Below, piece after piece: positions 7,180 through 59,000 of a DNA stretch of 64,000 nucleotides. A model generated the notes under the pieces. That model had not been told where the DNA came from. It saw only the letters and a list, made by a program, of their open reading frames with translations, and did no database searches. A program made the translations under genes and the position numbers. The DNA lies in assembly GCA_029571225.1 (NCBI GenBank), contig JAKPTF010000035.1, positions 12,575-76,574 on the forward strand. The letters run 5' to 3'. The stretch's first letter is position 1. Each line of letters begins with the position of its first letter. The DNA is from Candidatus Omnitrophota bacterium. GTDB lineage: Bacteria; Omnitrophota; Gorgyraeia; Gygaellales; Profunditerraquicolaceae.

Positions 7180-7217
7180 TGTACTCCTCCCATGTTAGGA
7201 CGATTTTAAAATATCGG

Positions 7218-10073: not shown

Positions 10074-10120
10074 TATCTCCCCCTTTTTATCGGCTTAGAT
10101 GGCATTACGATATATGCATG

Positions 10121-10153
10121 CCTGCGCGGCAGGCATCATGCCTGCCGCGCAGG
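10121..10153. promoter_or_regulatory. GC-rich 13-bp perfect inverted repeat (stem-loop) in the 89-nt gap between the fusion-enzyme gene and the PGI gene
   Basis: CCTGCGCGGCAGG (10121-10133), loop CATCATG, CCTGCCGCGCAGG (10141-10153). No U-run follows on the coding strand, so it is more likely an mRNA processing or stability element, or a protein-binding site, than an intrinsic terminator. Confidence 0.45.
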
Positions 10154-10162
10154 TAATTGATA

Positions 10163-10880
10163 TTAAATCTTGTTGAGCGTATCTTCGTACACGGTCTGCA
10201 TTGCTGCGACTTCGTCGCTGACAGACACCAGCGGCACATCGGCCAGCTGCGCGGCGAGCTGCGTGATGTTAAGCAGGTCTTCCGAGCTGATGAGGCCTTT
10301 GTTCATATACGCAGCGGCCATGTTCTGGAGCTGCTGTCTGACCGTATCCTCGGTATTGAAGATCATGGCGAGTGCCTTTGCCATGACAAGCGGCATCGCA
10401 TTGATGCGTTTCTGCGTGACGGCCGCGCGGGATCCGGTTACGCGCACGTTCTTCACCTTTGCCTTTTCGAAGAACAGCGACGCATCGGATACGGTAAACT
10501 CGGCTTCGATATTGTCCATATCGGCATCCGCGCTGATGAGCGCGATCCTGGCCTGCGGGATCTTTGCCGCGGTCACTGCCTCAAGTGCCGCCTTCAAACC
10601 AACATGGATCGTCGCGATCCGGCCGACCCCTAATGCCTCAAGGGTCAGCTTAGCCGCGTCGTCCTTTGCCCATACGCTGAAGTCCACAACGCCTGCCGCA
10701 TCTTTTGCTTTCTCGAGCGCCGCGATGCTGCCGGCGTTTTCCATGATGGCGTTGGCGCCGAGGATAACCGCGCCCCTGGCGTTCTGGACATCGCTGATTG
10801 ATTTGACGAGATCATCGAAGTTCAACGCGCCTGCATTGTACACGCTTGCATCGCTCTTAAGCACAGTCTCGATGAGATCG
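10163..10880 (-). other. Shared C-terminal domain, copy 3 (roughly 230 aa, ends EDTLNKI)
   Basis: GAVILGANAIMENAGSIAALEKAKDAAGVV ... LISADADMDNIEAEFTVSDASLFF ... INAMPLVMAKALAMIF ... DVPLVSVSDEVAAMQTVYEDTLNKI. Confidence 0.7.
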
Positions 10881-15313: not shown

Positions 15314-15329
15314 CGTTTCTTCTCCTTTT

Positions 15330-16859: not shown

Positions 16860-16861
16860 GG

Positions 16862-16918
16862 GCAAATAAAAAAGCCACGACTCACTGAATCCTCTTTTCC
16901 GGAGGCATTCAGTCATCC
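16862..16918 (-). terminator. Terminator/attenuator-like hairpin followed by a U-run, immediately 5' of the TraB-like gene's ATG
   Basis: Minus-strand RNA: GGAUGACUGAAU-(16-nt loop GCCUCCGGAAAAGAGG)-AUUCAGUGAGUCGUGG, then CUUUUUUAUUU, then GCCC AUG. A 7-bp perfect stem plus imperfect extension. Could terminate giant-gene transcripts or act as a leader attenuator. Confidence 0.35.
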
Positions 16919-16946
16919 GTGGCCATTCCATACTGTATGTGCTTCT

Positions 16947-16964
16947 TTTGAAAGCGCTTTCAAA
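16947..16964. promoter_or_regulatory. Perfect 18-bp palindrome TTTGAAAGCGCTTTCAAA, candidate operator
   Basis: Seen directly. Positioned just downstream of the candidate -10 element and about 90 nt upstream of the MNKKLKK start. Confidence 0.4.
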
Positions 16965-16981
16965 ACGCCTTACTATTAAAA

Positions 16982-17010
16982 AAGATACCATAGAACACCA
17001 TTTCTGTCAA
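16982..17010 (-). promoter_or_regulatory. Candidate sigma70-like promoter for the downstream (lower-coordinate) genes
   Basis: On the minus strand: TTGACA (17010-17005), a 17-nt spacer, then TATCTT (16987-16982). Lies in the AT-rich 217-nt gap between the giant gene's stop and the TraB-like gene's start. By eye only. Confidence 0.3.
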
Positions 17011-38000: not shown

Positions 38001-41000
38001 TGATCGCCATGGCCTTGATAGCATCCAGATTTCGCTTGAATTCGGCAAGGTCAACTGCCAGACAGGCGGCGGGGATACCGTCATTAAATAATGGTTTGAT
38101 ATCGACTTTACCGTTCAGATACACATAAAACCCCTTGATATGTTTCAGTGCCTGTTCGAAATCCCGTGCAGGAATAGTTTTCAACAGGCGCAGGAAGTCC
38201 GTGTTTGAGAACAAATCCCTGAAGAGCCGGTCAGCATCTGCGTTTCTTTCATTCTCCAGCAATCTGAAAACGGAACGCTGATCTAACGGATACGCCTTGA
38301 TCTGGTTCAGCATATCGTAAATCAACTTCGCCTTTTCCCTGCCGTCCGGCTCCGATGCCGCAGCCGTGACGATCTTATAGTAAAATTCGGTTTCTTTCTT
38401 TGCCCGCGGCAATAATATCCAATCGCGCCTTTCTTTCAATTCACGCGTCATTTTCCACCACGGATGGTCGACGATTTTGATTGTTTTCATTTCCTGGCCA
38501 TTGATAAGCCACTGGGTCAATACGCGCATCAATACATCATTATCCAGCCGCCCGTACAACGCTACTGCCCGGGCATACTCCTTATCTGCAATAGACGCGG
38601 GATCCTGTTCATCGAAATCCCTCATTTCCTTCAGGTCATTCCCGAATGAGCTCACTCTCTGTATAAACAATTGGACCCGCTGCGCCCGTGCAATAAGCAG
38701 GCACAATCCGGTGGTGAGACCCAGAACGATTAATAGTGCCGTTTGATTATCTACTAAAATAAAACAGGCAACGATGGTGACAACCAGGAAAACGCCGAAA
38801 GCGAGTATATTAAAGAATTCCTCTTTCATGAGAGAAAGATCGCCTTCTTTTACCTGTGCCATCTGCAGGCGGATACCCGGCTCTAACAGAATCTCGCTGA
38901 TTCCGGTGCCGGATCCCTGCTGCCTGCCGCCGTCTTTTAAAGGCGGGAGCGCATCTTCGGAAATGCCAGGATCCAGGGATTTATTCAGATGGTACCATTC
39001 CTTAAGAGAAGATAACTGATTGTCCTGAAACAGGGTTCTCATGAATCCGGCTTTCTGCTCGGGCGTATACGCCTTCCACTCAGGTTTTGATTGCTCGTTG
39101 AAGATCCTGAATACTGCTCTTTTGAGATTATCCGGGCCATGTGCCAGGATAGTTTTCAGGTATACGTGCGTCCAGGAACCAGTCTGGCATCTCGTCCAGA
39201 GTTCCAGATCATCGGCGAGTTCCTTCAAATACGCGACCTGCGCGAGCGTATCATTGGCGCGGTATTGTGCCTGCTGCCATTTGATAAACCTGGCAACGAT
39301 GCCTTCGATGATCACCATGCTCTCGACGCCCTTAAGGTTCTCCCTGAAAGACTCGATGCTTGCCACACCACGGCATGCGGCCAGCAACCCTTCATTGACC
39401 AGCTCACCTGTGCCGAGGCCTGAACGCGCCAGGAATGCATACAGGCCGCTAATCAGTTTCAGGCATTCCCGGAAATCCTCGACAGACAGGTTACGCACCA
39501 GATCCTTGAATTCCTCGCGCGTGCGCATTTCGACAAAATCCTTTTCGATTTGCTGCGCGCGAACATCCCCCAGGGATGCGCTGTTCATATCCCTCAGCAT
39601 ACTGCATAATGACTTAACTTTTGCCTTGGCGTCACCGAAAGACGGCACCGCATCCTGCATTGCGTCAAGGAGAAGTGCCTCATTCTGTATCAGAGATTCA
39701 TATACCTTGCGTCCTCTGCTCATCGGCCGATGCGCCATAATAAGCGCTATCTTGTCGGACTCTCCCCTGAACAGCAGGTCCTTTAAAAGCAGAACGGTCA
39801 TGTAATGCGTGGTCCAATAGATGGCCCTGCTGGCGTTTTTGATCTGCCGTTCTGAAAGGGCCTTTGTTTGAACTGCATAAAATGTATTCAGGGCTTCAAA
39901 TGTCCAGGAAATACGCCACATTTTCCCGAAAAGACCGTACATATAACGGGTAAATTTAAATATACAGGCAAAGAACATCCAGATAAACGGCCAGATTGCT
40001 GCTAAAACTACCGCCGCAAAAATGCCCGTGTTCTGCGATATGATTACGCCGCCTACGAGATGCGGGCCGAAGATACCAAAGGCCACAAGCCCAGAAATCA
40101 AAAGAATACCACTGATAGAGTGCCATGGCAAGAAGCCTTTCGTAATGATCTCAAGAGCACGTTTAGCCTCCTGCCAGAAAATGTTGGTCAAGTACTCTAT
40201 CAGCCGCTGCCTGGCAAGTTCCAACGACAGCCTTCGATATTCCTCGTACGTATAGGGGAATCCTTCTGCCTTATGCCGCGTGCTTCTGCCGCCGTCCTTC
40301 TGGCCATTGCCGTTGACGTCACGGCGGCCTGCGGCGTAGAACCCGCGCTCCTGCAGGATCTCGTCGCGGATGATCGAAGCAATGGCAAGCGGCACGTTCT
40401 CGATGTCGCCCTCAACAACCCAGTGCGAATACACCTGCTGGACATAGGTAATACCTTCACCGATGCCTAAACCGATGACCTTGATGCCTTCAGCTTCGGC
40501 TTTCTCAATTTCCTCCTGCATGACCGCGGTATTATTGAAGTGGCCGTTGCCCTCTCCGTCTGTGATGATGATAATAACACGGCTATCTACTGTTTCTTCG
40601 CGCATCTTTTCTACTGCCAGCCGCAGCGCATCGACGTCGCATGTAGCGCCGCCACCCATGAAGTTTATGATCTCGCTGATCAGCTCTTCTTTTTTGGCCA
40701 GGTCAAGCTTCTCGTCAAATTCTTTGTGCACCCATGCCCCTGAATGAAACCCGATGACGTTGAATTCAATGTTCAGGTACTGGAGCGTCTCCATGAGCAG
40801 GACCAAACCATGGATCTCGTCTTCCACGCGGCCCATCGCGGGAATACTGCCGCTTTCGTCCAGCAGCAGCGAGAACCTGTGGCTGCGCGATTCCGGCCGC
40901 GTCTTGCGCAGCCAAACCTTATCGTCGCTAATGCCCTTGACCTCATATGCGATATCCGCCTGCATTAGCCTGCGAAGGTCTATCTTCTTGCCGGTGCGGT

Positions 41001-44000
41001 AGAAACCCTTGAAGCGCGGCTTTGTATCCTTGTGCAGGATGTTGTCGAGATAACCGATGAGCGTATTGATGATGACGCTGACCGGGGCGTAGTATTTGTC
41101 ATAATCAGTAGAGTGCTTTTTGCGCTGGATCTCGAATTTACGCTTGAGGTCGATCAGATCGCCCAACGACCTGCCTTTGAACTGCGCATCGCGGGCCGCT
41201 TTCTTCTGGTCAAGCCGCTTGTCGCTATCCTTATTGCTTTTCCTGTCCGTTTCGTCTTTCTTTGGTTTTTCGCCGGCTTCCTGCGCTGCCTTTGCTTCTT
41301 CTTTTTCGCGCTCTTCCTGCTCCTGGCGCAGGCTTTCCTCCGCCGCTTCGATCTCATTCTCCTTCTGGGCTTTCTCTTCCGCGTTCTTTTCTGCGTGCGT
41401 ATATACCTTTGCGCCGAATTTATCAGCCATTTCCTTCGATTTCTCATCGACGATCTGGCGCGCACGTTGCACGATCTCTTCTTCGCTTAATTCATGGTCC
41501 CAGTCCTCTTCGTCGTTCTGGTCGCTGCTTCCACCTTTCTGATCCTTATTTTGAGGTTCCTGGCCGCCCCCGCCGCCACCCTGCTGGTCTTTTTGATCCT
41601 TATTGTCCTGCTGGCCTTGCTGCCCCTGCTGGTCGCCCGACCCGCTACCGCTCCGGTTGCATTGCTTGCAGCCTTGTTGATTCCGTTTCCTGACCTGGTC
41701 CTTCACGAGATTTTCCGATTCCTGCACTAACGGCTCGTACACAGGCATGATCTTGTCGCGCAAGACACGCATCACGTTCTTGGACGCCTTGAGCTTCTCG
41801 GTCGCGGTCGGGTTGAGGTCCATAAGGACTTTTGTCTTCTCGTTGATATCCGGGGCTGATATCTTGCGTTCATGTCTGCGGTTATCTTTGATAACAAGAT
41901 CTTTTTCCCCGTCCCTGCGCACGGATAATCCCAGGTCTGGAGCATCGACTGCCTCATCGCCTTCAGGATACATGACTGTCTGGCGCCTGCCGTCCGCCGT
42001 TGTAATAGTCAACTTATCTTTGTCCGTGCGTTCAACGTCTATCGTGCCGGCAAGGGTGTTGAAGATGCCGGTATAATCCTTTCTGGTTTTCTCCAGAGCT
42101 TCCAGGACATTCTTGTTTTTGATGCGCGGATGCGGTTTGCCGTACGCCCAATCGTGTATGGCGCCAAAACCGTACTGCAGATGCGGCAGGACCTGCTGGT
42201 CATTGAATGGCTCGTTCGAGTCAGCGCCGAGCAGCTTGGGATCCTCATAAAGCGCGTCAATATACTTATCAGCTCCTTCGAATTTCTTTTTTGTCCAGTT
42301 ATTGACGCGCGGGTCTTCGAGGGCGTTCCAGACGAATTGCCTCGTCGGTTTCTGCTTGACGTACGGATCAGGGAAGGTGATGTCGCGATGGGCGCCTTCA
42401 TGAAGGCACGCGCCAAGCACGAATTCTTCCTTCTTATCAAGCAGGTCCGATTCCGGGCAGTGCATCACCGGCGGCTTGGCTTCAAGGTCAACGCCCCACA
42501 TGGGGCCCGGGCCGGGCTGGATCTTCATGTCATGGCCGAACGACCGGGCCATGGATTCGACGCGGCGCACCTTATCCTGAATCTTGCGTTCCTTTAATTT
42601 CCGGGCGAGCCAGTTCTCCTGGTCCTGCCTGGCATCGTCCGCAGCCGGCTGCTGCTCATTCTCATCCCCCCCGTCTTTCCTGCGCAAGACCGCGTCAGGA
42701 TGAACAAGCTTTGATGCAGCAATCTTCTCGGCAATGGCTTCTTTTGTTACGATGAGGGGTTTTACGACTGCGGGGCCCATTGCAAGCAGTTCTTCCCGGG
42801 TGATTTCGCGTGTCAGATTATCCAGGCTATCGAAACGTTCGATGATCGTCTTAAGCTGCGCATCGCTGATGGCGGCGACTTCTGATGCGCTTGCGATCGC
42901 GACCGGGCTGAATTCTTTCATGACACAAACCGTTTTATCCAGCGCTTTGTCAATCAGAGGCAATAACGCGCAGCACACGACCCGGTGCGCCAGCGGCAGA
43001 GGCGGGCCCGTGGTCAAGACAGGCGATGCCTTTCTCTGCGCGCGAATGATATCTTTTTCATTCGGGTTTATTCCGCTTAATGCCTCGGCAATGCAGCAGC
43101 GCGGCCACTGCGCATACAGAATATCTTCCAGCTCATCACTGAGTCTTTCCATTGCATCCAGGACAGCATCAGTACGCAGAGCCCGAGGTTCCATTGCTGC
43201 AAATTCCGCATAGTGCTGCTGCACATATGCCTCATCCAGGCTTAAGGCTTCAGCGATAAACCGTATATTCGCATCCTCTTTTTCTCCACCGTCCGCTTCC
43301 TGCTCTTTGGAGTACGCCGGGATATCTTTATTCGGGTCAAGCGCTTTGTTCAGCTTATACCATGCATGGCCGTTAAGCCGAAAATCCCTGGCCAATGCCC
43401 GCAGGAATGCATCTTGTGCGGATGGAGAACGGCCTTTCCAATCAGGCATTGCCTGTTCTGCGAACAATTTTTTTACCGCTTCTTTCAACGGTCCCTCATC
43501 TTTCTCAAGGATCGCAGCATAATAGACCTGTGTCCAGGCGCCAGCTGGGCCTCTTGATTCCAGTTCCATCTCCTTGCTCAATCGGAGAAGCTCTTGTTCC
43601 TGCAGGAAAATGTTCTCCTGGCGGTATTGCTTGGTTTTCCACTCGTTGAATTTAACGATAATACCTTTAACTATCTGCTGGCCCTCAATACCTTGTATGC
43701 TGGACCTGAATTCCTCAAGGTTTGAAACTGCGCGCGCCGCAGCGGGAACTCCCTCGGAAAGCGCCTCATTGGGATCAATATCCTTGCTGCTTAGAAACAT
43801 ATACATATCTTTGATGAAATCGAGGCTTTTACGGAAATCATGTGTCGGCAGGCGGCGGATCAGATCAAGGAAATCAGGATTCCTGCGCATTGTCCCGAAT
43901 GCCGCTTCAAAATCGACCGCCTTGCCCCAGACGTTTTCGAGCATTGCGTCTTTAAGGGCGACCAGTGCATTGACATTATCGCGCGCTTCTTCCGGCGACC

Positions 44001-47000
44001 AGGACATGATCCATACCTGGTCAAAGAAAGAAGCTTCCTCGCGGATATCCTCTTCAATCGATTTCTTCTCTTCGTCGGTCCATACGGACTCAAGCTCAAG
44101 GATCCTCTGTATCCTGTCCTCTTTTCCGTTGAGCAGCATCCGGCGGAGCACCATGGCGCGGTATTTTGCAGACATCTGTTTCAGGAATTTTCCCGCGAGT
44201 GCAATATCTTCCTGTGATATGTCTTTCACAGGCCTATCATAAACCTTTGAAAATCCGCGGAACCTCTTGTCAAAACGGACCGACCGCACGGCGAACCGCA
44301 ACGCATTAACCCCTGTGTAGAGCGCCAGCGTAAAAGCAAAAAAGATAAACAACGGCACGAAACATACGGGCTGCAGTAACAGTCCGTACCAGATCCAGTC
44401 AATGATAGTGTAAAGATATAAGTGAACACCCAGGAACACATCAAGCAGATATGCCGCGATGGCCGGCATCCACACAAAACCAGCCATCAAATAAACAAAA
44501 AGATACTTGCAAAATATGTCCTCCAGGACTGCATTCAGTTTCGCGCGCGTACCTAACCGCTCCGATTCTTTGCCCCTGATAAATTCGTGTTTCATATCAT
44601 CAACAGGGAACACAGGCGCATCGCTGCCGCCATCTTTAACCGGATTGGCGCATTCAGGCGCGCTGATACCTTTGGTCAAACAGGAATTAACGATCTGTTC
44701 CATTTCCTCCGGCCTGAACTCGCCGTCGATCCAGAATTCCTGGAACTTATTCCTCATGGCCAGCGAAAGCCGGTTGCGGCCTGCATACCTGCTCGGGTTC
44801 ATGGCGGCGAAGAGGCGGAAATCAGGATGCGGCCGCACCATTTCGCCCTCATGTTCGGTGATGACCAGGTATCCGTCGTCGTCAAGCAGGGAATTGATGC
44901 GCTCGAGTATCTGCGGTTCTGCGAGATTGATCTCATCGAGCAATATCCAGTATCCCTTTTTCATCGCCTCAACAAGCACGCCGTCGCGCCAGCCATATCT
45001 GCGCTTACCCTCTCCTTCCAGAGGCAGATATTCGCCGATAAGTTCCGACGTATCGGTCTGGCCGTCAAGCGACACGCGCACGAAATTGGCATTGGCCAGG
45101 CGCGCCATATAACGGATAAGCGACGTCTTGCTGGATGCGGTCGGCCCGACAAGAAGGACATACTCGCCCATTTTTATGGACGGCGCGATCCTCACCAGGT
45201 ACGACAGCGTTGTCTGGATGTGAACAAGCGCCGCATCAGGTCCTGGTATGTACGGCCCGCCATGCCGGAGCTTTTCAACCCTGACACCGCTGAAATCGAC
45301 CCCGTCAGGATCATCGGTAATGCCGTACGTGCGTGACGCCTGCGCGGGAACATGGCAATGCTTTGCAACAATCCGGTCGAACACCGCCTTGTCCTTTGCG
45401 GTGCGCAAACAGCTGCCGTACACCTCTTTCATCTGGCAGCACAAAAGGTCATGCAAGTCACCCTGGCCGTTGTTGAGCAGGTTTATCCTGTTCGACACGC
45501 GCAGGAGGTTGCGGAGGGTAAAATAATAGAACTCCCCCTCCTCTGAACCGAACAGTCCTTCGACGCCAGCGGTGCGGATTTCGTAGTGAAGGTCGCGGAT
45601 GATCCGGAGGCTGTTGCCGTCCACCTGCGTGAACTTGCGCTCGAGAAGGTCAAGGAGCTCCGATTCCGGCATCTCGTCGATCCATTTGACCCTGAACCGG
45701 TTCATGAAGGCAGGCGATAGCGCCTTGCGGCCCGCATATTCCACCGGGTTCATGGTCGCAAAAAGCCTGAAGTCCGGGTGGGGCACGATCTTTTCGCCTT
45801 CGTGTTCGCGCAGGATTATGTTGCGGTCGTCATCGAGCAGCGAGTTAATGCGCTCGATGATCTGCGGCTCAGCAAGGTTGATCTCATCCAGGAGCAGCCA
45901 TTGGCCTTTTTTCATCGCGTCGATAAGGATGCCGTCGACCCAGGCGAATGAACCGTTGATCTGCGGCCGCGATCCGCCGATGAACTCCAGCTTGTCGGTC
46001 TGGCCGTTCAAGTTGAACCTGCGGAAATCGTTATTTGTCATGGCAGCCAGGTAGCGGATGAGGGATGTCTTTCCGACGCCGGTCTCGCCGACGAGAAGCA
46101 CCTGCTCGTTCATGGCCACCGCATACGCAAGTGACTGGAGGTTATGCACGGTGCTGGGCGTATGGATCAGCTGCGCCGTTGCCTTATTGGGCACGTATGC
46201 CCCGGCTTTTTGGTTGACCGGAAGGACGGTCAGGCCCACGGTCACCTCGTCATCCGTAACCTTTATGGCATCCTGCGGCGTTGGAACAAATACCGCAGTA
46301 TCGGCGCCGCTCGCCGCTGCTCCGAGGTCCTGCAGAAGAACCGCAAACTGCCGCATGTCTTTCTGTGTTTCCATGCGGTCCTGATATACGTACATGGCGC
46401 CTTCCAATACCGCTTTCTCGGTCCCGATGGACTGATACATGTTCACGAAACGAGCCCACGATTTCAAGTCCCTGATGCTGAACACATACCCCTGCAGGCC
46501 GCTGCCGGAGAGCGCGCCGGTATTGACGAGCGAAAGCAGCCTCATATGCAGCCTGACCATTGCCCCGGCAATCGCGTCCTTATCCGGTACCTGCAAATAC
46601 CTGCCCACGATCGTGATCAGCTCATCCTTTTGGAAATTGCCGTCAATCCAGATCTCATGGAACTTGTTGCGCATTGCTGGCGAAAGCTTGTTCCTGCCGG
46701 AGTACCTGCTCGGGTTCATGGCGGCGAACAGCCTGAAGTTCGCATGCGGCCTGACCTGCTCCGCCTCATGCTCGGTAACGATGATTGAGCCATCGTCGTC
46801 AAGGAGCGGATTGATGCGCTCGAGGATCTGCGGCTCGGCGAGATTCACCTCGTCCAACAGCACCCAGTATCCCTTTTTCATCGCATCAATAAGGACACCG
46901 TCGCGCCATACATATTTCCTGCCAAAACCGTTGCCTTCAGGCGCGTATTCGCCGATGATCTCTGCGGTATCGGTCTGGCCGTCAAGGGACACACGGACAA

Positions 47001-50000
47001 AATTATTTCTGGTCAGATATGCCAAATACCGCACGAGGGACGTCTTGCTTGCTGCGGTCGGGCCGACAAGAAGTACGCGCTCGTTCAGCCGGATCGCCGG
47101 AATTATATGGCGAAGGTAGCGCATGGTTGTCGGGATATGCACAAGGCTTGATTCCTTTCCCGGGACATACGGGCCGTCCACGTTGTTTATCTCCGACGTA
47201 TCCAGCGCCATATTGTTCGGATCATGCGCTCCGTTGGGGCTCAGACCGCTGAACGTCGTATCAAGCAGGTCTGCGAATATCTGCTGGTCCGTCTCGGAAC
47301 GGAGTGCGCTCGCATAGACCTCCTTGGCCTCTTCGTTGAACAGCCGCTTCAGCGCGAATTCATTAACCTGTTCGCCGTCCTCCCTCATCCGCTTTTCGCG
47401 CAGTTTAACGCGCTCGCACAGGCGGATCAGGTGCCTGAGGGTAAAACAAAACGGCTCTCTTTCGTCCCTTCCGAGGATCCTTTCCTTACTGTCGCGCACG
47501 AGCGATTGATGCAACTGGTCAATGCGGCCGAGAAGCAGGGTATCGAACCCGAATTTCTCATTCAGCAGGCTGATCCGTTCGCTCGGCAGCATCTCATCGA
47601 TCCATTTGACCCTGAAGCGGTTCATAAGCGCGGGCGAAAGGACGTTCCTTCCTATATAATCGGTCGGGTTCATGGTGGCGAACAGGCGAAAATCCGGATG
47701 CGGCACGATCTTTTCGCCGTCGTGCTCCCGCAGGACGATGTTATGGTCGTCGTCCAAAAGCGAATTGATGCGCTCGATAATCTGCGGTTCTGCAAGGTTG
47801 ATCTCATCCAGAAGGAGCCACTGGCCCTTTTTCATCGCCTCGATAAGGATGCCGTCAACCCAGGCGAATTTCCCGTTTGCCTGGGGCCTGCGGCCTCCGA
47901 TGAATTCCAGCTTATCGGTCTGGCCGTTCAGATTGAACCTGCGGAAATCATTGTTGGTCATGTATGCGAGATAGCGCACGAGCGACGTCTTGCCCACGCC
48001 GGTTTCACCGACCAGAAGCACCGGATCGTTCAATGTCACTGCCTGCGCGACCGCTTCAAGGTTAGAGACCGTGCTTTGCGTATGGACGAGCTGCGAGGAC
48101 TCTTTCTTCGGAACGAATGCGCCTGCCTGTTTCTTCACGGGAAGGATAACCGAATCAACCCGCACCGTATTGTCTTTTATTTCGATAGTGCCTTCCTTAT
48201 ACGGCAATACGACAGGCCCCTCTTCCTCTTTCTTTTGCTGCTGGTCCGCTGCCGGTTTTTCTTTCGGGCCTTCGACGGCCTTGCGGAACCTGATGAATTT
48301 CTCCGCAACGTCTGCGGACAACGGGCCGACCGCGATATGCGCTGCGTCAACGCTGTCGGATTCGTTCTCCAGCTTCTGCAGGGCAACGGTAACAGCCGCG
48401 CTCAATGCAGGGTTCAACCCCATGAGAAGCTCATTGCGCAGCTTTTCCGAAAATGCGCGCAGGCGCAAGTCGCCGATAACCTCGATGGCCGCCTTTTTGA
48501 TCTGGGTGACCTTGCTGGCAAGCGGAACATCGAGCAGCACCGTCGCAATCTCGCGCGGAAGCAGGACGAATATCCGTATGCCTTCCGCGATCTTCGCGTC
48601 CTCGCGGCTTGCAAGCATCTGGGCGATCTGTTTGAGGTACGGCTGCAGGTCCTGCGGAAAGTTCTCCGTTGCCCTGCGGAACTGGTCCGCGAGGCTAAGC
48701 GACGTAAAATCCTCCTCCTGGACGAAGTCAGCCATGGACATGATGTCGTATGTCTCATAGGTCTGCTCTTCCCACACTACGTCGATGTCGAAATCCCTCG
48801 ACTTGCTGCCCGTTGACGCGAATTTAGATTCCTTGACGATCTCCTTGAGCTGCTCCTTATCCTGCGGGGATTCCAGGCGGTCCTTGAACACGTACATGGC
48901 GCCCTTGAGGAACGTAGTGCGCATGTCGGCGTTGAAATTCTCGTTGAACGTCTTGATGAAATACGCCCATTGTTTCACGTCGCGCAGGGAGAAACTGTAT
49001 CCGTCATTGCCCATCTTGCGCCTGCCGATCTGCCCTTCCTGGATGCGCTTCTGGACATGCTTGTAGATCTTGATCATTTCCGCAATGACGTCGTCTGCGG
49101 CAAAACTGCCGAGGTAATGACGGATGATCGAGGTCAGCTCCTCATCGGTAAACTCACCGTCCATCCATATCTCGTGAAACTTGTTGCGCAAAGCCGGGGA
49201 GATCTTGTTGCGGCCCGAATACCGGGTCGGGTTCATGGCGGCGAAGAGCCTGAAGTTCGCATGCGGCCTGACCATCTCGCCTTCATGCTCGGTGACGACG
49301 ATAAAGCCATCGTCGTCTATGAGCGAGTTGATGCGTTCGAGGATCTGCGGTTCGGCAAGGTTCATTTCGTCAAGGAGGATCCAGTAGCCTTTTTTCATCG
49401 CCTCAATAAGGACGCCGTCGCGCCACAGATAGGAACGCTCCGCCGCATTCTCACCCGGGATATATTCCCCGATCAGCTCGCAGGTATCGGTCTGGCCGTC
49501 GAGGGAGACGCGCACGAAATTGTTCCCGGTCAGATGCGCAAGGTAACGGATGACCGATGTCTTGCTCGAGGCAGTCGGCCCGACGAGCAGGATGCGCTCA
49601 TTCTGGCGGACAGCCTTGATGATCTTGCGGGCATAGCACAAGGTGGACTTGACGTGCACGAGCTTTGCTTCTTCCCCGGGCACATACGGCCCCTGCACGT
49701 GTTCGATGCCGGACGTATCCAGCTCCTCGTCGGATACCGGGCAGGAATAGCAGTCGACGCCCGGAAAGACCTGCTGCATCTGTTCTTTGAAGACCTGCTG
49801 GTCTTCTTTTGACCGCAGCATGCTGCCGTAAATATCGCATGCCTCCTGCGCGAACAGCTTCATCACCAGCGGCCCGAACTCGAAATTATTGTTCGTGCGT
49901 GCTTTGACGCGCTTGGCAATGCGCAGAAGATGCCTGACGGTGAAATAATACGGTTCCGGCTCGTTCTTGCCCAGGGTCGGAGCAATGCTGCGCAGGTTCT

Positions 50001-53000
50001 GGTGAAGCATGATAACGCGGGCGATCACGTCCTCATCGAAGCCGAATTTGCGGCGCACAAGATTCAACAACTCGCGCTCGCTCAGTTCCTCGATCCATTT
50101 CACGCGGAAACGGTTCATCAAAGCGGGAGACAAGGCCTGGCGGCCGGCATACTCAACCGGGTTCATGGTAGCGAACAGGCGGAAGTTGGGATGCGGAACG
50201 ATCTTCTCACCGTCATGCTCGCGCAGGATGATATTGCGGTCGTCGTCGAGCAGCGAGTTGATGCGCTCGATGATCTGCGGTTCTGCCAGGTTGATCTCAT
50301 CCAGGAGCAGCCAGTATCCGTTCTTCATGGATTCTATCAGTATGCCGTCAACCCATTTCAACGTGCCGTCGGCCTGCGGCCTGCGGCCGCCGATGAACTC
50401 CAGCTTATCGGTCTGGCCGTTCAAGTTGAACCTGCGGAAGTTATTATTGCTCAAATAGGCCAGATAGCGCACAAGCGACGTCTTGCCAACGCCCGTTTCG
50501 CCGATGAGCAGGATAGGATCGTTAAGCGTCACTGCCTGGCCGATCGCCTCGAGATTGCTCACGGTCGAGGCTGTATGCACGAGATGAGCGACGTCTGCGG
50601 AAGGGACATACGGCCCGCCCTGTTCATTGATCATTACCTTCGCGCAGCCGACCTGCACATAACCTTCCTTGGGCGGCAGGATGCGATTGTTCGCGTCGCG
50701 TTCGTTGAAGTGCTTGCGCGACCGCACGGACTCAAAACATTGCTTCATTTGCGGATGATATTTGGCAAAAACAGCTGCCACTTCATCTGATTTCTTCTGC
50801 AGGTCTTCCGGCAGGACCGGCGCATTGAGATCGACTTCTGCAGCCACATCTTTTAATAATCTGCCGTCCACTTTCTTATAGCCGAGCGTAATGAGCGCCC
50901 GCGCTGCCGATGCTGCCACAAACCTGTCTTTGCGGTCCAGGAGCGTCATCAAGTATGTTGCGTATTTCTTGAACCGGAATTGATTGACCAGGTCGATGAT
51001 CGCCCGTTTGATCGGCCCATCCTCATAGGTAATGGTATGGTCGATCAGCTGTTGCGCTATTTCAGGCGGCAGGCCTTTCCAGGCATAAATTGCGGCAACG
51101 GTCGTCATATCGACTTTATCGCTGAGCATTCCGGAACTTTCCCTGATCGCTCCGGCCAGATCTTCAGTTTGGCCGCGGACAAAATACCTGAACAGGACAT
51201 CCAGGTTGTTTGAGAACAAAATGTCCCGCTCGTCAAATCCTTTGAATTCCACGATCTGGTCAAACTCATCGCTTGCCGCGACATCGATAAAGCTGCCCAG
51301 ATTCAGCTCCGACATAGTTTTCATGAATTCTTTGCGGTCCTCGGGCTTTTCCATGCGGTCGCGGTATACGTACATCGCGCCCTTGACGAATGACCGGGCA
51401 AGGCCCAGTCGAGGGCTGAACTCGCGCACGTAATTCGACCACGCGCGCAGGTCTCTCAGGCTGAACTCATACGGCTCTTTGCGGCCGGCGCCGATCATGT
51501 TCTTTTTAACCTTTTCCCTCAGCTTGGAATGCAGACAGACCATCTCCTTAACCACCTCATCCTTCTGCGTGAGGTTCTCAAGGGGTTTTATCGCGTCTGC
51601 GACCAGGTCTTGTTTACCGCCGTCCTTCATCGGCGCAAGTGTCGCCTCGGTCACCGCAGGATCGAGCGCCTTGTTGAGCTGATACCATTCTTTCTGGTTT
51701 AACCCGTAGTTCGCAGCCAGGGAATGCAGGAAATCCACCTTTTGCTGCTGCGAATACGCTTGCCATTCGGGCTGGGCCTGCTTGTCATAGAGTTTAAGTG
51801 CGGCGTCATGGAAATCCGGCCGGATATCCTTGAGGATAGTCTTGAGGTAAACATGCGTCCATCCGCCCGGAGGACCGCGCGCAGCAAGCTCCATGTGCTC
51901 ATAGAGCCTGATCAACTGTTGTTCCTGTCCGATAACGTCCTTACGCCTGAATTGCCGTCCAAGCCACGATTCGTATTTGGCGACCACGCCCTGGACCAGC
52001 TGGTAACTTTCGATGCCTTTGAGATTGCTGATAAAGTCGTCTGCGCTCCTCGCTCCCCTCGCTGCTGCAGGCACGCCTTCGGAGATAGCCTCATCAGCCG
52101 CGATCTCCTTGGAACGGAGGAACTCGGCCAGCGCCTCGATACTGCGACAGCACTGCCTGAGCTGTTCCGGAGCCAGGCTAAAGACGAGTTTTTTGAAATC
52201 TTCGTGCCTGCTCATGGTCTTGAACGTTTCAAGGCTGACACCGGCCTTTTTGTCAAGCCGCACCTGTGCCGCACTAAGCACCAGTATTTTTAACCTGGCT
52301 TCTTCAAAAGACTGTGAGTGATCCGCAATCTCATCCTGAAATGCACCTTCTTCCTGCAATTCACGGAGCAAAATTTCCGTGTTGCGCTTGTCAGAGAGTG
52401 TATTAATGATCCTGCGGGCAACATCCGAGCGGGAATTAAGCAGGAATAATTTAAGCAGCCCTGCTATGTCCTTATTCGACCACTGGCCGATGATGCTGTT
52501 CATCTTTAAGATCAGCTCATCAGGGCACGGATCACAATCAGGGATCAGCATTTTTTCGATCACCGCTCTCTCTTTGTTACTTATGGAACAAGATACCCGC
52601 AACTGCCTGAATGCGAACACGGCATATATGCCAAGATGAATAAGCGACGCTACCAGCATCACAGGCACGAAAAGGCAGCAAACGCTTCCGAAGAGCCAAT
52701 AATACCAGGGGATTACAAAAGTTATGCCATAAAACCATTCTATTCCGACTAAGGCTATGGCGAATATTATTCCACCGAGGATTTCGCCGACGGGTACTAT
52801 ATGAAGCGCTATAAAGGCCCCGAGAAACTTCGAGTCCCATAAACCTTGGATCCTCTGATCACATTTGGCCGAGAGCTGTTCCAATGCAGCGTCTTTATTC
52901 GCCAGGGGCAGCGCCGCATACTCGGCAAACAGTTCCTCCTCGTCCGGATTGCCGCCGTCCATCAGCGGCGCCAGGGTCGCCTCGGTCACCGCAGGATCGA

Positions 53001-56000
53001 GCGCATAGACAAATTTCTGCTGTAGTGATAACGTCTCCCAATCAGGCCGCAAGCGCCGGTGATACAGCTGGGTAATAGCCTCTTTCAACCGGCCGGGACC
53101 GCATGCTTCCCTGGCGATAACAAGAAATTCCAGATTCTCCTGGCGGCCGCCGTCGAATGCCCCGGACATGCGATAGTGCTGATCTATTGCGGCATACTCT
53201 TCTTTTACCCTGGCCATCCATTGATCATGAGCTTCCCTGCCGTTTTGCCCGGAGAATTCCGGTATTGTTTTCTGCGCTGTCGTTGATATCAGGTCAAACA
53301 GTTCCGTGTCGGATCCGGTCCCGGTGCCGAATGTATGCTGCAGGTCGCGTATAAGACATATCCCCATGCCGATGCGCTCGAGAACCGTCTGATCGTACAG
53401 ATTCTGATATGACAGAGAAGAAATATTCCTGGCCAGATGAGCCGGCGACAGGAAAAGCCATTCTAACATAAGCGATTTGATAATGGTCGCCGGAACGGAT
53501 AATGAGATCCCACCCAGCACCAGAGACACGGCAACGGCGGAGAGCCAGGTAATAGGCGAGACGATCACCACCCATATCAGGATGTAGCCGATGTTAAGGG
53601 ATGCCTTTGCGCACCATGAAAGCACGGTATCAATGGTGTTTATCGTCTTGCGGTGCCTGCCAAGGGCGAGCGGCCATCCTGCCGCATCTTTACTGCGTGT
53701 TTTCCATCCGATCAGATGAGCTGTCATACGGCAGGAATCAGTTTCCAGGGACGGATATAAACCGTTGAACACCGCCGCTGCCAGATTGACATGCGTGAAT
53801 ATTATCAGCGCAAGCCAGGGAGACGCGATGTTCGGGATCAATACCGAAAAGGGCGCGATCCCCAGGGAATACAGGACGATAAGGCCGATCACTGCCAGGA
53901 TGAGGTTGGATAAAGGCCCTGCCGCTGCTACGTAGAAGCCGGACCGGCTGGAGCTAGTGATCGCCGTTGCGGGATCCTCCTCGACATATGATGAGACAGC
54001 GGACAGCCTGATGCGTCTTATGGGCCTCTTGAATCGGATCATGACGAGCGCATGCGCGGCCTCATGGATGGCTGATATGGAATATACTCCGAGAGTCAAG
54101 GCGCCCAGCACCGGGTTCAAGACCCACAGGACGATTATTGCAGGAACAAGAAGAACCAGATTAAAGTGCAGTTCGATCGGGATCGATGTGGGCAGGTGAT
54201 AGACGCTTGAGAACCCTCTTCCGGTCCAGCCGGATTTTCGCCGCTCCGTTTCAGATTCTCCGCCGTCGCGCAGGATGACGTGCGGCAGGGTCTGATAATC
54301 GGGCACGACGGTGCGGATGTTCACCGCGCGCTTGAGCTTCTCCCAATCGACCTTATTGAGCTGATGCTCTGCGGCGATATTCTTCAACCAACCCAGCTTC
54401 TCCTCCAAGGATAAGCCGTTCCATTCAGGCCCGCTTGTCTTCTCAAACACCTTGACCGCCGCTCTGCGCAAAGGCGCATGGGGTCCGTAGTTTTCCTGTA
54501 TCTGTGTCCTGAAATACAAATAGGTCCAATCTGCGGAATCACGAGGTATCGTCAGCCCGATTTCTGATATAAGATCCTTCAGTTTAGTCTCCTGAACGTC
54601 AAGTTCATAATTATGCCCGAGCGGACCGTTAATAAAATAACCCAATTCCCACTGTTTATATGCCCGCACCACAGCTTCTTTCAGGGCCCAGAACTTAATG
54701 GCATGCAGATTCCGAGCAATCTCCTCTTTGGTGGCGGCGCGGGTCGCCGCGGGCACAGAATCGCATAATATCCCGTCGACTGCGATCCCCCGGCTGCGAA
54801 GGCCGCTGCACATCGAGACGATCATATCAAGGCTTTGCTGAAAATCATCCTGCGCGAGATTGCGGATCATTTCCAGAAATTCAGTCTGCGTGGTAAGATG
54901 AAGAAACACCTCGTGGGCATGCCGCATACCTTCCGACCCCTCTCCCAGGTACGGCACAAGCTGACGCTCAAATCCATACAGGGCGCGCAACCTATCCCTG
55001 GCGGTTTCGGCACTATCTGCCAGGCGGAATACTTCGCTCTGGAACTTTAACTCTGCCTGTAGCGATTCCGTAAGCCTTGCTCTTCTTCTATCGTTCCAGA
55101 CAGACAACGCGCAAAACCGCACGGCCTTGTCGCCCTGCAGCCGGGAGAGCCAATCCTGGATCAGAAACGTCAAATACCTGTCCGGAAGCTGGCTGAAGGC
55201 TTTTGCCGATCTCTCCAGACTATTATCAGATACATCGGAGCTGTCAGATACTATGATCTTCTTCATCCGGGGATGATCAACGCAATGGTGCACGGCCAAC
55301 GCAATATCATACACATGACCCGTGAGGAATAAAGCGCCCATAACAGGCATGATATAAAGAATATTCAGGGAAAGCGTGAAACCCACGCCAGCAGCTATAA
55401 AGTTTAAAATTACAGTCATGAAGAAAACTATCCATCCAAGATCAGCTTCTGGTGACGTATGATATGTCCGCGCCTCCAGTGTTTTCCAGAAAGGGACCTG
55501 CGGCAGAGCCTTGCATAAGCGATTAGAGATTTCTTCATCTGCCACAAGCAGCATATTGACTACGAAGTTTAAAATAGATATCATGAATATTGTCGCGCAC
55601 AAAATGAGGCCCAGAGCGGACAACATAAAAATTCCATCGATAGTCACGGCCTGCGTATAGAACTGCCATGCCAGACCTGTATCGCCTCCTGACAACGCAG
55701 CCCAGGCCTGCGCAAAATATGAAAGAGATATCTGATCCTGGGGGGTTAAGAAACCGGCGGCGAAAACGCTGCATGCAGTCCACAGCGACCCGCCATCCGA
55801 ACGCAGGCTCGCCAGTCCGTCCTGGTCTGTTAATTTCTCCCGAATAAGACCGTTGTTGAACTGCGGGTTGACCCAGACGATCCTTCCATCAGGCGTAATG
55901 TCGCAGAGCGCGGGGCACACAATATCGATGCCGAAGGTCCTGTGCCACTCATCCTGTATATCGCGCGGCAATATCAAACGGTATATGTCGGCCACCGCAC

Positions 56001-59000
56001 GACCCTGCTCGACGTGGGTATATGCGGCCCTGTCCGGCCAATTCGCCGGGTCAAGAACCGTTTGCCAATCCGCCTCTGTAATCTCTCCCTTCTGCAGGCC
56101 CAACACCACCCTTAAACTGCTCAAGAGTTTTTGTCTTTCCTTCGAAAGGTCGCCGCCGTCATGCTCTGCCGCTAAACTAGTCTCCTTGGCACTGATTATT
56201 TCAAGCGCATCCCCGGCCATTTGAAGCGTTGCTTTCATACCCCGTATCTGCTCATCGGAAAAATCGCCGCTGGCGCGCACACTTTCAGCGATCTCATCGC
56301 GCATCTCTGCGGCGCGCGCGCGGCGGTCCGCAGGCTTTTCCTCCGCAACCAGATGGTGAATACCCTCGGCGATCATAACCAGGTTCCGGTCGTTCATGAA
56401 GTCTGCCGGGCGCAACTGGCCGGCAATATCCTTGAGCTGCTGTACCGACGTTATGGCATAATCGTGGTTAACCAGGCCAAAGGCTGAAAACATCAAAACG
56501 AATACACCTATAATTCCCAGGCTGAAGGGCACATAAAACGGAAGAATGCCGATTACGGACAATACCGCCAGGGCAATGCAACTGACCGCGACAATCCGGC
56601 TGTAGACTACGGTCACCCTGTTCGCATAAACGACATTTGTTTTCATCGCAAGCAATGACCTGATCACGCGGCCCGAATCAAGCGGGTACATCGGCATGAA
56701 AAGATTGAATATGCCCAGAATCCAATTGATCAGGCCAAGCGACACCAGCCAGGCGAGCGGGCTTGCCATATCTATGACCGGCCAGGCGAACAGGTTGAAC
56801 GAAGCACCCAGGAGCGCTGCGGGAACGAACAGCGACGCTGCTATGCCGAAACTTGCAAGGGGGCCGGCAATGGAAACCAGAAATTCCTGTTTCGGATCCC
56901 TGAACTTCATGTCCCGGATCGCCGTAGTGCCTCCCAGGATATGAAGCGTAATATGATCCGTTTCAAAGCCGTATCGCCGGGCAGCGCGGATATGCGAAAA
57001 TTCATGCGCCAGCACTGACAGAAGAACGGCAATATAGAACAACAGAAGTTCCCATCCGGTTAACGCAAACAGGGCAATCGGAATAACCAGCGTGATGTGC
57101 AGCCGCAGCGGGATCCTGGTCGGTATCTGTAACGATGGAAATATCCCGTCGCCGACCAATTCCCAGGATTTGCTCTGCGCTGCGCCGCCGTCCCGGCTCG
57201 CATCGATCCGTGTCGACGGACAAACCACCCTGGCTCTGAACCATAGAGGAACATGCCGGATCATATCCTGCCTGATCGAAACAGCTTTTATAAAGCTGTC
57301 CTGCGCCATGTCTTCAAAGCCAAGGGCAAGCGACATTGCCCCCAGGTTTACATGTGATATATGGCACGCCGGATTGAGCTCGATTGCCTTCTGCATCTCT
57401 ATAATGGCTTGCTGAAAATAACCCTGCCGGTAATAGAGTAGCATGCTGCGGTTATAGAGAACCGACGCGTAATCGGGATTCTGCTCAAGCGCCTTCCGAT
57501 ATGCCGAAAGTGCGGCGTCATAGTGGCCGAACTCCGCATATACCGCTCCCAGGTTATTATAAATACAACAGCTCACGCCCGGCTTATCCATTATCTGGAA
57601 CCCGAAGTAAAACAGATTCAATAATTCTTTCTTTGTGATGCGGTCGACATCCAGCACGCCTGCCTGATATTGCTGCTCGAGTTCGATAACACGCTCGCCG
57701 GATATTTTATAGTTTGGCTTGAGTACCCAATATACGCCTGCTTTGCGGTAATATTTCCTAACATTGACGACCCGCAACGTGTTTAATATGAAATCGATCA
57801 CCAGCAATCTTTTCTTGTCAAGCATGAGCCCGACAAAACAATGTCCGATACGGCTGCAACCCCGGACGTTGAATCCCAACATTGCCAGGATGATATACGT
57901 CAATTGCGCGGTTACAATACATCGCGCGAGGCATGCTTTCATAGCAGCGCTTTCGCTGCCGGAACGGGAATCGGCATCAATGACATCGAATATATTTTCG
58001 TGGTTCAGGCTGTTGACTAACAGCATGCTTATCTGCGGCGGATCAACCTCTTCAAAAATCCGGTTCCTGTCGAACAGGTCCCACACCACAAGCATTAATT
58101 GGCCGAGATGCTTTCTGCCTTCGGGGGCATTACGCAGGCACTGATGCCATTGCGCTGATTGTTCTGTAAGGGTTTGCCATGTATCTTCAGGAAGGACCTG
58201 TTTGATCTGAGCGTTCAACGCCGGAACGGCATTTTCAGGATACCCGATGCTCACGAGAATACCGGATAATTTTTCATCATACGCTCCGCCGTCCAGGCTG
58301 AGATACAACTCCAGAGCCTTGTTCCTGACCAGCGCAGTCATTTCCGCTTTCATATCGGCATCGTCAGGGTGCGCCATGCAGCGGCGGAAGGCGCTATCAA
58401 AAACCCGGGCCGTGAATTCAAATCCTGCGTTATAGTAAAATTTTATGTAGCCGAACATCCCTGCCGGATCGCGGTCGATCACCGGCGACGGATCATGCGC
58501 AAATCCCCTGACCGCGCCCTCATGAAGGGAATATATTGCACGGAGCCGTTCGATGAATATCTCGCGCGTCCAACCCTGATGCCGGTATTCCGGGAACAGG
58601 AAGAACCCGGTATTAAAGAACCACTTGGAATGCCAGCCAAATCCGACAATCCCATCCCTGTTGGCCAGGATCTCGAGCCTTTCATGGCGGCCGCCGATCG
58701 TGACGTTGAACCCGCGGGGTCTTTCCGAACAGGACCAGTGTATCCCGCGGCCGAGGATCGTCGTGTAGAACGGATCGTTCTCGAACATCATGATACCTTC
58801 TGTCTCAAGACAGAAATACGTCCTGCCGTAACGGGCGCTGTGCTGACTTATTTTTGCATCAAGCATTGCTACCTGGTCAGAGCTATCGGCCCAATCGGAA
58901 TCGAAAAGCTCGATCGGCTCTTTGATCCTGCTGACGATTTCTTCGCGTCCTGTCCCGCCGTCGCGCAGCGCTCTCTCGATCATCTTGATGTCGCTTGAAA

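Follow-up and report, generated by a model that had tools for sequence, protein, structure and literature searches.

The 64,000-nucleotide stretch analysed here (the window) derives from contig JAKPTF010000035.1 of a Candidatus Omnitrophota bacterium, and nearly all of it is coding on the minus strand. A single stop-free frame occupies minus-strand positions 17077-63996 and is still open at the end of the window, indicating that the protein that it encodes is at least 15,639 residues long. Residues of this giant protein are numbered from the codon at window position 63996, taken as residue 1. Fragments 100% identical to the giant protein occur on two public contigs of Candidatus Omnitrophota bacterium (P0002 and P0122). 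The subject of this report is a midasin-like unit at residues 4150-7885 (window 40342-51549, minus strand), which contains six AAA modules of midasin type and, further downstream, a zincin-like domain and a domain with a MIDAS (metal ion-dependent adhesion site). An earlier reading made from the sequence only had placed a midasin-like arrangement at positions 40440-50700; this interval does contain both the ring and the VWA domain, but the unit proved to be larger and also includes a transmembrane cassette and an HExxH motif that went unmentioned. From its N-terminus onwards the unit is composed of the following features:

Window 51238-51549, minus strand (residues 4150-4253): orphan B-type AAA lid, hereafter lid0, with sensor-2 motif FSLRDL, about 215 residues upstream of module 1.
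Window 50590-51237, minus strand (residues 4254-4469): HEAT-like helical spacer between lid0 and module 1, read from the sequence, with no Pfam hit above threshold.
Window 49705-50589, minus strand (residues 4470-4764): AAA module 1, A type (GETGVGKTS, LLLDEIN, FATMNP, MNRF), lid with FTVRHL.
Window 48769-49668, minus strand (residues 4777-5076): AAA module 2, B type (GPTASSKTS, ILLDEMN, FAAMNP, RNKF), lid with FSLRDV.
Window 48097-48768, minus strand (residues 5077-5300): HEAT-like insert between modules 2 and 3, recognized from its sequence and by comparison with P0169 and P0135.
Window 47188-48096, minus strand (residues 5301-5603): AAA module 3, A type (GETGVGKTS, LLLDEIN, FATMNP, MNRF), lid with FTLRHL.
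Window 46249-47151, minus strand (residues 5616-5916): AAA module 4, B type (GPTAASKTS, VLLDEVN, FAAMNP, RNKF), lid with FSIRDL.
Window 45283-46176, minus strand (residues 5941-6238): AAA module 5, A type (GETGVGKTS, LLLDEIN, FATMNP, MNRF), lid with FTLRNL.
Window 44650-45234, minus strand (residues 6255-6449): AAA module 6, B type, core only (GPTASSKTS, ILLDEIN, FAAMNP, RNKF), no lid in cis.
Window 43333-44508, minus strand: membrane cassette, with a hydrophobic stretch and, up to residue 6888, an "X" domain (hydropathy, self-BLAST, cassette profile).
Window 42613-43332, minus strand (residues 6889-7128): helical spacer before the HExxH domain, no assigned family.
Window 41821-42612, minus strand (residues 7129-7392): zincin-like HExxH domain followed by a small beta-sandwich, with HEGAH at residue 7199.
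Window 41167-41805, minus strand (residues 7398-7610): long helix and a partly disordered, mixed-charge linker rich in Q, G, E and K (composition, AlphaFold2 confidence).
Window 40342-41166, minus strand (residues 7611-7885): midasin-type MIDAS domain (Pfam VWA, phmmer, Foldseek, conservation).

Domains were assigned to the giant protein by Pfam profile searches. Over residues 4401-7900, these searches revealed six separate AAA_5 stretches (E = 2.4e-157; residues ~4470-6450), five AAA_lid_7 stretches and one MDN1_4th stretch, and the ATPase block was also matched by AAA_3 and bpMoxR; at the E-values obtained, a chance match is not an issue for the AAA or the VWA assignment. The Walker A motifs, located at residues 4499, 4806, 5330, 5645, 5970 and 6284, alternate between GETGVGKTS (A type) and GPTASSKTS or GPTAASKTS (B type), so that the modules follow each other in the register ABABAB. 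The six modules and their alternating Walker A motifs, both pointed out by the sequence-only reading, are therefore borne out. That reading had further asked whether the modules might be a degenerate scaffold. Reading the residues of each module from an alignment of the window modules, and mapping cores and lids with hidden Markov models (HMMs) built from the window, we found the Walker A lysine, an intact Walker B (hhhhDE) and the sensor-1 Asn in six of six modules, each of which also has a basic residue in its finger (MNRF or RNKF); this is not what a degenerate scaffold looks like. Modules 1-5 have the sensor-2 Arg as well, and so does lid0. Compared to the RSRF finger of AAA2 in yeast Rea1, the A type keeps the second Arg, while the B type keeps the first and has Lys for the second. 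The three AB units share 61-64% identity at the protein level and about 70% at the DNA level, and the retention of every catalytic residue despite this divergence points to selection. Modules 2, 4 and 6 have Ser at position 6 of Walker A (window 49579-49581, 47062-47064 and 45145-45147, respectively). Other Omnitrophota relatives have Ser, Ala or Gly at the position of the second Gly of the B-type motif, and the stand-alone AB proteins described below have Gly. Ser or Ala at the second Walker A Gly is also found in MCM and RavA, which are active ATPases.

The order of cores and lids is permuted in the window. According to the HMMs, the chain reads lid-(core-lid)x5-core, an order also found in nine relatives (L008, L010, L011, L012, L014, L015, L021, P0135 and P0140), whereas the stand-alone two-module proteins are canonical core-lid-core-lid. 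Module 6 keeps the first lid helix and lacks lid helices 2-5 along with the sensor-2 Arg; the chain then enters the hydrophobic stretch. At the other end of the block, lid0 is recognized by Pfam as a lone midasin-type lid (AAA_lid_5, residues 4139-4211), can be aligned to the module 2 and module 4 lids, is matched by the lid HMM, and in phmmer searches matches the Rea1 lids AAA5S, AAA4S and AAA2S. We infer from this order that the chain would be built of six rigid bodies, each consisting of lid(i) and core(i+1), with the ring closing non-covalently at the nucleotide site of module 6. In yeast Rea1, the small domain of AAA6 is absent and the N-terminal domain substitutes for it beside AAA1 (PMC6286127). 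As far as the sequences tell, the two layouts share a topology; homology of lid0 to the N-terminal domain of Rea1 is not claimed, since lid0 matches the AAA lids of Rea1 instead.

Against the PDB, phmmer placed the ATPase block closest to midasin (4.7e-177), followed by NorQ (2e-12), CobS (5e-12) and CbbQ (2e-11). Downstream of the block, the VWA profile PF00092 matches residues ~7710-7850 above its cut-off (E = 4.6e-8), and the region shows a weak Pfam match to VWA_CoxE. The MIDAS domain is composed of an N-terminal helical extension, a loop (FYRTGKKIDLRRLMQ...DKVWLRK) that is the counterpart of element II of Rea1, and the VWA core. Its MIDAS residues are found in DESGS at residue 7713, the T of GGATCD and the D of TDGEG; the D, S, S, T and D of the motif are kept in 26, 26, 26, 25 and 26 of 26 homologues, respectively, and the complete MIDAS announced by the sequence-only reading is thus confirmed. 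Using residues 7100-7950 as the query, phmmer aligned this region with the crystal structure of the Rea1 MIDAS domain (6qt8, E = 5.6e-5), pairing ...GFYRTGKKIDLRRLMQ...DKVWLRKTRPESR...LLLDESGS in the window with ...GAFRTGKRLNIKKIIPY...DKIWMRRAIPSKR...CVDDSSSM in Rea1. The aligned Rea1 segment holds the nuclear localization signal of PY type (PY-NLS) KKIIPY and hence lies in element II, the MIDAS loop by which the domain docks into the pore of the AAA ring in Rea1 (PMC6624252). Since the ATPase block is closest to Rea1/Mdn1, the lids are of midasin type and the MIDAS domain aligns across the element II loop, the midasin-like order proposed from the sequence also holds.

An AlphaFold2 model of residues 7129-7905 has a mean predicted local distance difference test score (pLDDT) of 77.8, its domains being mostly above 90. 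Its top match among PDB structures in a Foldseek search is the VWA of NorD in NorQD complexes (4.5e-12), followed by the MIDAS domain of human MDN1 (8ql1; TM-score 0.72-0.74 over ~280 columns) and then by that of Rea1, all of which rank ahead of the generic A domains of integrins and VWF. Because the NorD, MDN1 and Rea1 folds outrank the generic A domains, the VWA as modelled is of the AAA-partnered MIDAS type, and not a member of an unrelated VWA family, a doubt that the earlier reading had raised.

Two elements precede the MIDAS domain. The low-complexity stretch (residues 7430-7640, 211 residues) contains 23% D+E, 20% K+R and 12% Q for a net charge of -6. The acidic linker described from the sequence thus survives as a low-complexity and partly disordered segment, with pLDDT below 50 at model residues 317-371 and 440-477, but not as an acidic one. 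The putative zincin-like domain carries the HExxH motif and, as a candidate third zinc ligand, the E of NALEDPRVNN. Conservation among 25 partner proteins (see below) is complete for the Glu of HExxH (25), whose two His are retained in 20 (first) and 21 (second); the Glu of NALEDPRVNN occurs in 23. Its similarity to zincin folds is modest, and peptidase activity is likely. The PDB search with residues 7100-7950 gave no midasin match for this domain. The spacer that precedes it (residues 6889-7128) had no match in Pfam or NCBIfam, nor in the PDB search, for which the query was that same range, residues 7100-7950.

With one AB unit as the query, 512 proteins were retrieved. Over this unit, identity is about 40% with fragments from Omnitrophota, 39-41% with bacterial proteins of ~720-740 residues that contain two AAA_5 modules, and 28-30% with eukaryotic midasins. 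The two-module family comes from metagenome-assembled genomes (MAGs) labelled Bacillota, Eremiobacterota/Vulcanimicrobiota, Armatimonadota and others, and some sources name its members "midasin" (pipelines of the Joint Genome Institute, JGI) or "MoxR-like". In four genomes (L001, from Vulcanimicrobiota; L003, a MAG labelled Bacillota; L004; and L006), the two-module gene is directly followed by a gene coding for a partner of 837-922 residues. An alignment of 26 partners gives their layout as a zincin-like HExxH...EDPRxNN domain, a low-complexity linker, an xTGK[KR] loop and a MIDAS domain. Residues 7135-7900 of the window are collinear with the L001 and L003 partners (BLASTP), the MIDAS part being 35% identical over 267 residues (E = 1e-40) and the HExxH part 31% identical (E = 6e-23). 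Scored with profiles of the two types, module 1 of the stand-alone proteins is A and module 2 is B, by margins of 20-70 bits. Because the partner half is collinear and the stand-alone modules run A then B, sequence comparison shows the window unit to be a fusion of an operon of AB and partner genes, in which the AB pair is present three times and the partner lies in cis. The stand-alone AB proteins presumably form a trimer of AB.

These relatives are numerous. An exhaustive search of representatives at 50% identity with the MIDAS query gave 1,791 relatives at E <=1e-3, 65 of them at <=1e-30; a word-indexed search with the same region had given one fragment only. In a scan of contigs from one genome per species, the partner-half query confirmed no relative, and the alignment query found seven loci, from MAGs labelled Omnitrophota or Planctomycetia, each combining six Walker B motifs with HExxHR and MIDAS in a single giant open reading frame (ORF). 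P0140 (4,471 residues) is a complete single chain with terminal hydrophobic anchors, lid0, three AB pairs, HExxH and MIDAS; other single-chain examples are P0191 (4,005 residues), P0174 (6,708 residues) and P0135 (7,557 residues). The nine proteins of lid-(core-lid)x5-core order, which originate from Omnitrophota MAGs, MAGs labelled Planctomycetia and others, go on to carry HExxH and MIDAS, and are only 30-40% identical. P0191 (L079) has six AAA modules, the zincin-like domain and MIDAS at its extreme C-terminus. Its contig is labelled Thermoproteota, but contains genes for LpxB, RadA/Sms, and ClpA-like, UvrD and AddB-like proteins, so that it is probably bacterial and an archaeal occurrence was not retained. 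At L007:2882-13342, a locus from a long-read metagenome, about six AAA_5 modules are divided among four ORFs that adjoin or overlap, and a gene of its own for a 771-residue HExxH-MIDAS protein comes next; either the unit is truly split there, or a single gene of ~3,500 codons was broken by frameshifts in the assembly. A DDE transposase gene lies just upstream of the AAA ORFs of L007.

The surroundings of the stand-alone operon were also inspected. At L001:5334-12993 and L003:5507-12857 the gene order is secG-rpmE-tdk-prfA-AB-partner, a translation-related neighbourhood that is intriguing given the role of midasin in ribosome assembly; a link of the operon to the ribosome or translation was set aside as this order does not recur in L004 and L006. 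A role in anti-phage defence was likewise dropped, PADLOC having returned only generic P-loop matches without an aligned stretch, and nothing for the MIDAS half. Neither half belongs to a named family: no NCBIfam match came anywhere near its cut-off, and the highest-scoring one, GvpN, reached 97 bits where 267 are required.

With moderate confidence, we propose that the unit is an AAA+ machine that belongs to the midasin/MoxR clade, consists of one chain, is tethered to the membrane and carries out cytoplasmic, ATP-driven remodelling or processing of proteins. The remodelling or force-generating role that the sequence-only reading had suggested is plausible. The six modules would assemble into a closed, pseudo-hexameric ring lying against the membrane on its cytoplasmic side, lid0 completing the nucleotide site of module 6. 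On its flexible linker, the MIDAS domain could reach back and dock on the ring by the conserved loop, as the MIDAS domain does in Rea1 and NorQD, and its metal ion would hold a client protein by an acidic residue. Driven by ATP hydrolysis, the ring would then pull on or remodel this client, which the adjacent zincin-like domain may subsequently cut. By analogy, such a scheme would resemble the logic of FtsH or of the MoxR-vWA-peptidase systems that Zhang and Aravind predicted to act near the membrane (PMC3495828). The most economical guess is that the client is a membrane protein or a part of the giant protein itself.

Several observations weigh against this proposal or against the midasin likeness on which it draws. 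The MIDAS fold is as close to NorD as to midasin, which leaves room for cofactor insertion. The nearest relatives of the AB units are bacterial (about 40% identity) and eukaryotic midasins reach only 28-30%; a zincin-like domain and a membrane cassette stand between the ring and the MIDAS domain, and the linker is not acidic. The B-type Walker A is non-canonical, its second Gly being replaced. Domain order is the basis for proposing that the ring closes and that lid0 pairs with module 6, and with three helices in residues 6497-6563 the ring and the MIDAS domain would end up on opposite sides of the membrane.

A second explanation is that the unit is a chaperone of the cofactor-insertion or activase kind exemplified by NorQ-NorD, CbbQ-CbbO and CoxD-CoxE, which would mature an enzyme or transporter module of the giant protein or a separate metalloenzyme. 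The rank of NorD among the fold matches, the membership of the ATPase in the same helix-2-insert clade and the weak VWA_CoxE match all speak for it, as does the presence of many enzyme domains and of Cation_efflux in the giant protein. However, the ATPase sequence is ~165 orders of magnitude nearer to midasin than to NorQ/CbbQ, the conserved HExxH...E of the zincin-like domain has no role in known insertases, and no obvious metalloenzyme client is encoded beside the stand-alone operons in the four genomes. We thus regard this explanation as unlikely.

Another alternative depends on the membrane topology of the unit. A cassette of ~390 residues, identified by self-BLAST and HMM, is present in seven copies along the giant protein (minus strand, window about 33241-55431; residues 2856-3226, 3726-4113, 6495-6888, 7953-8344, 8401-8787, 9452-9767 and 9860-10252). 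The unit is flanked and split by these cassettes, which lie before lid0 (3726-4113), after module 6 (6495-6888) and after the MIDAS domain (7953-8344), and in the giant protein as a whole they set functional modules apart like beads on a string. The cassette HMM did not find the cassette in related giant proteins from other MAGs. In the copy that follows module 6, the hydrophobic stretch (residues 6497-6563) is 67 residues long and has room for two or three helices. With three, the MIDAS domain could lie outside the cell and bind ligands of prey or host while the ring transmits force, as the sequence-only reading had suggested for a prey or host surface. MIDAS adhesins do occur in predators, for example Bd0875 of Bdellovibrio (PMC12428579), and West-Roberts et al. 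predict that most domains of Omnitrophota giant proteins are extracellular, although they call their own transmembrane predictions unreliable. Residues 6497-6563 are nevertheless probably a hairpin of two transmembrane helices, because the shortest copy of the cassette fits two helices, because the flank downstream of the hydrophobic stretch, with a net charge of +4, would be cytoplasmic by the positive-inside rule, and because the loop by which the MIDAS domain would dock on the ring is conserved, implying that ring and MIDAS are on the same side. With two helices, ring and MIDAS part would share the cytoplasmic side. The related giants agree with this topology: in the seven of them no membrane segment was found between modules 3-6 and MIDAS, nor between module 6 and the HExxH domain, the distance from module 6 to HExxH in relatives being only ~70-550 residues. 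Their membrane cluster is instead located between modules 2 and 3, where the window has only the HEAT-like insert. As the ring must be cytoplasmic, an outward-facing mechanoenzyme or adhesin acting on a prey or host surface appears highly improbable.

It is equally hard to see the AAA and VWA domains as relics that serve only as structural spacers. The B-type Walker A, the lack of a lid in cis in module 6 and the fast evolution reported for giant proteins (West-Roberts et al.) could be taken in this sense, but the catalytic residues kept in six of six modules that share only 61-64% identity as AB units, MIDAS residues that are invariant or nearly so across 26 homologues, and an architecture that recurs in nine proteins only 30-40% identical make a degenerate scaffold very unlikely. 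Recent horizontal acquisition of a fragment of a eukaryotic midasin gene, which the top PDB match and the name "midasin" given to bacterial homologues by JGI pipelines might suggest, is barely credible given that AB proteins of several bacterial phyla are closer (39-41% against 28-30%), that the partner half is collinear with bacterial partners down to a zincin domain without a midasin match, and that the three AB units resemble one another more than any midasin module.

The proposed cytoplasmic AAA+ machine has a bearing on the origin of midasin. The accepted view, that of Iyer et al. 2004 in the restatement of PMC3495828, derives the array of six tandem AAA+ modules from a single-module MoxR protein in early eukaryotes, with later divergence into midasin and dynein. 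Bacteria with six midasin-type modules in one chain mean that the single-chain design is not confined to eukaryotes, and the two-module AB protein with its separate MIDAS partner is a candidate intermediate that makes the origin of single-chain AAA+ rings directly testable. We scored the modules of midasin, taken from the eukaryotic fragments P0053, P0054, P0070 and P0082, with the bacterial A and B profiles: the B profile scores higher for AAA2, AAA4 and AAA6 and the A profile for AAA3 and AAA5, while AAA1 falls clearly to neither side; the margins are small (2-37 bits). These scores give hints that midasin modules may alternate in the same register as the bacterial types. A neighbour-joining tree of module cores was weakly resolved with regard to shared versus independent triplication and to the attachment of midasin. 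Two further ideas are offered tentatively, neither being more than a possibility to our minds. One is that the single-chain rings and the AB-partner operon represent the prokaryotic stock from which midasin came, in which case the (AB)x3 register, the lidless last module with its N-terminal substitute and the pore-docking MIDAS loop would predate eukaryotes. The other is that the unit extracts, remodels or cleaves its own giant protein.

A literature search on bacterial or prokaryotic midasin returned only work on eukaryotic midasin, although an earlier brief mention of bacterial multi-AAA relatives is possible, and no experimental study of the stand-alone operon was found. Two preprints on Omnitrophota giant genes and Seymour et al. 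2023 contain no mention of midasin, VWA or dynein. Judging from its sequence, the unit would be new within the midasin/MoxR AAA+ and MIDAS kind in being single-chain and permuted, in having a zincin-like domain, in being membrane-tethered and in being embedded in a giant protein. The stand-alone operon, being widespread and without an NCBIfam name, could provide a compact bacterial model for the mechanics of midasin.

Over the giant protein as a whole, a hydropathy scan flags 53 segments that are hydrophobic enough to span a membrane. Outside the unit, the giant ORF (window 17080-40296 and 50797-63996, minus strand) contains the following domains recognized by Pfam:

Residues ~360-560, minus strand: DUF1152.
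Residues ~750-950, minus strand: triosephosphate isomerase.
Residues ~2145-2210, minus strand: TPR.
Residues ~2320-2476, minus strand: Peptidase_M50.
Residues ~10405-10590, minus strand: CoaE.
Downstream of CoaE, minus strand: HEAT, ROK, Cation_efflux, HAD (HAD_2) and GNAT.

Enzymes that are usually cytoplasmic (triosephosphate isomerase, CoaE, ROK, HAD and GNAT) sit between the membrane segments, as do Peptidase_M50 and Cation_efflux. The cofactors that the embedded enzymes need (ATP, CoA) argue that much of the giant protein is cytoplasmic, contrary to the published extracellular predictions. In the published view, Omnitrophota giants are mostly extracellular arrays for adhesion or cell-wall degradation; the presence inside one of them of a ring powered by ATP, together with a zincin-like domain, speaks for a cytoplasmic location of large parts and for possible active remodelling or processing of the giant protein.

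The genes 3′ of the giant ORF (window 1-16991, minus strand) include further large fusions of glycolytic enzymes:

Window 15330-16991, minus strand: 553-residue protein, no match in Pfam.
Window 10163-15343, minus strand: 1,726-residue fusion protein with aldolase class II, PFK and GAPDH C-terminal domains.
Window 7218-10073, minus strand: 951-residue protein with a weak PGI match.
Window 1-7194, minus strand: ORF of at least 2,398 codons that runs off the left end of the window, with PPDK_N, PEP-utilizers and PEP-utilizers_C.

This setting recalls the "Archaeovorin" giants of Omnitrophota (West-Roberts et al. 2023 preprint), which likewise have many transmembrane segments together with HEAT, TPR, HAD_2, AAA_5 and triosephosphate isomerase domains, and fusion genes of glycolytic enzymes next door. 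The 15,639 residues that lie inside the window yielded no SecA_DEAD, glycosyltransferase or NUDIX domain, the N-terminus of the protein lying beyond the window end. The preprint lists AAA_5 only as a frequent domain, and describes no six-module ring, MIDAS or zincin.

Among smaller systems, the bacterial AB operon is related to the window unit by ~40% identity over the AB unit and 35% over MIDAS, by the order of A then B and by the layout of the partner; it differs in being encoded by two genes (AB of ~730 residues, partner of ~840-920 residues), whereas the window unit is fused, triplicated and permuted, with cassettes inserted. NorQ-NorD, CbbQ-CbbO, RavA-ViaA and CoxD-CoxE similarly combine an AAA+ protein of the helix-2-insert/MoxR clade with a VWA/MIDAS partner that is expected to dock on it by placing a finger or loop in the pore of the ring, as the partner does on the AAA ring in NorQD (PMC13036017). 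Unlike the single ORF of the window, these pairs consist of homohexamers of single-module subunits of ~270-500 residues with a separate VWA protein, are known for roles in cofactor insertion or as activases, and have no zincin domain. FtsH, a membrane-tethered AAA+ ring with an HExxH zincin domain on the cytoplasmic side, is a functional analogy only: it belongs to another AAA+ clade, its M41 peptidase is of another family, and it is a homohexamer without a VWA adaptor; the homology seen goes no further than the superfamily level.

Midasin (Rea1/Mdn1/MDN1) differs from the unit in several respects. It has a linker of ~1,700 residues forming stem, middle and top, where residues 6450-7128 of the giant protein hold a transmembrane cassette and a spacer without a Pfam family and show nothing comparable (the PDB search with residues 7100-7950 matched midasin over the MIDAS part only), and its low-complexity segment is of ~600 residues and rich in D/E, compared to 211 residues of mixed charge in the window. 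AAA1 and AAA6 of Rea1 lack the Walker B that all six window modules possess. Conversely, the window unit has a zincin-like domain and a membrane cassette, has no PY-NLS and sits in a protein of at least 15,639 residues. Midasin strips the ubiquitin-like-domain factors Ytm1 and Rsa4 from pre-60S particles; no such ligands or pre-60S are known in the bacterium, which speaks against classing the unit as an orthologue of midasin. Yet both have six AAA_5 modules with midasin-type lids in one chain, a last module without its small domain and an N-terminal element in its place, and a flexible low-complexity segment leading to a MIDAS domain with DxSxS/T/D on the C-terminal side, and in both this domain carries the counterpart of the ring-docking loop (FRTGKR... 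in Rea1, YRTGKK... in the window).

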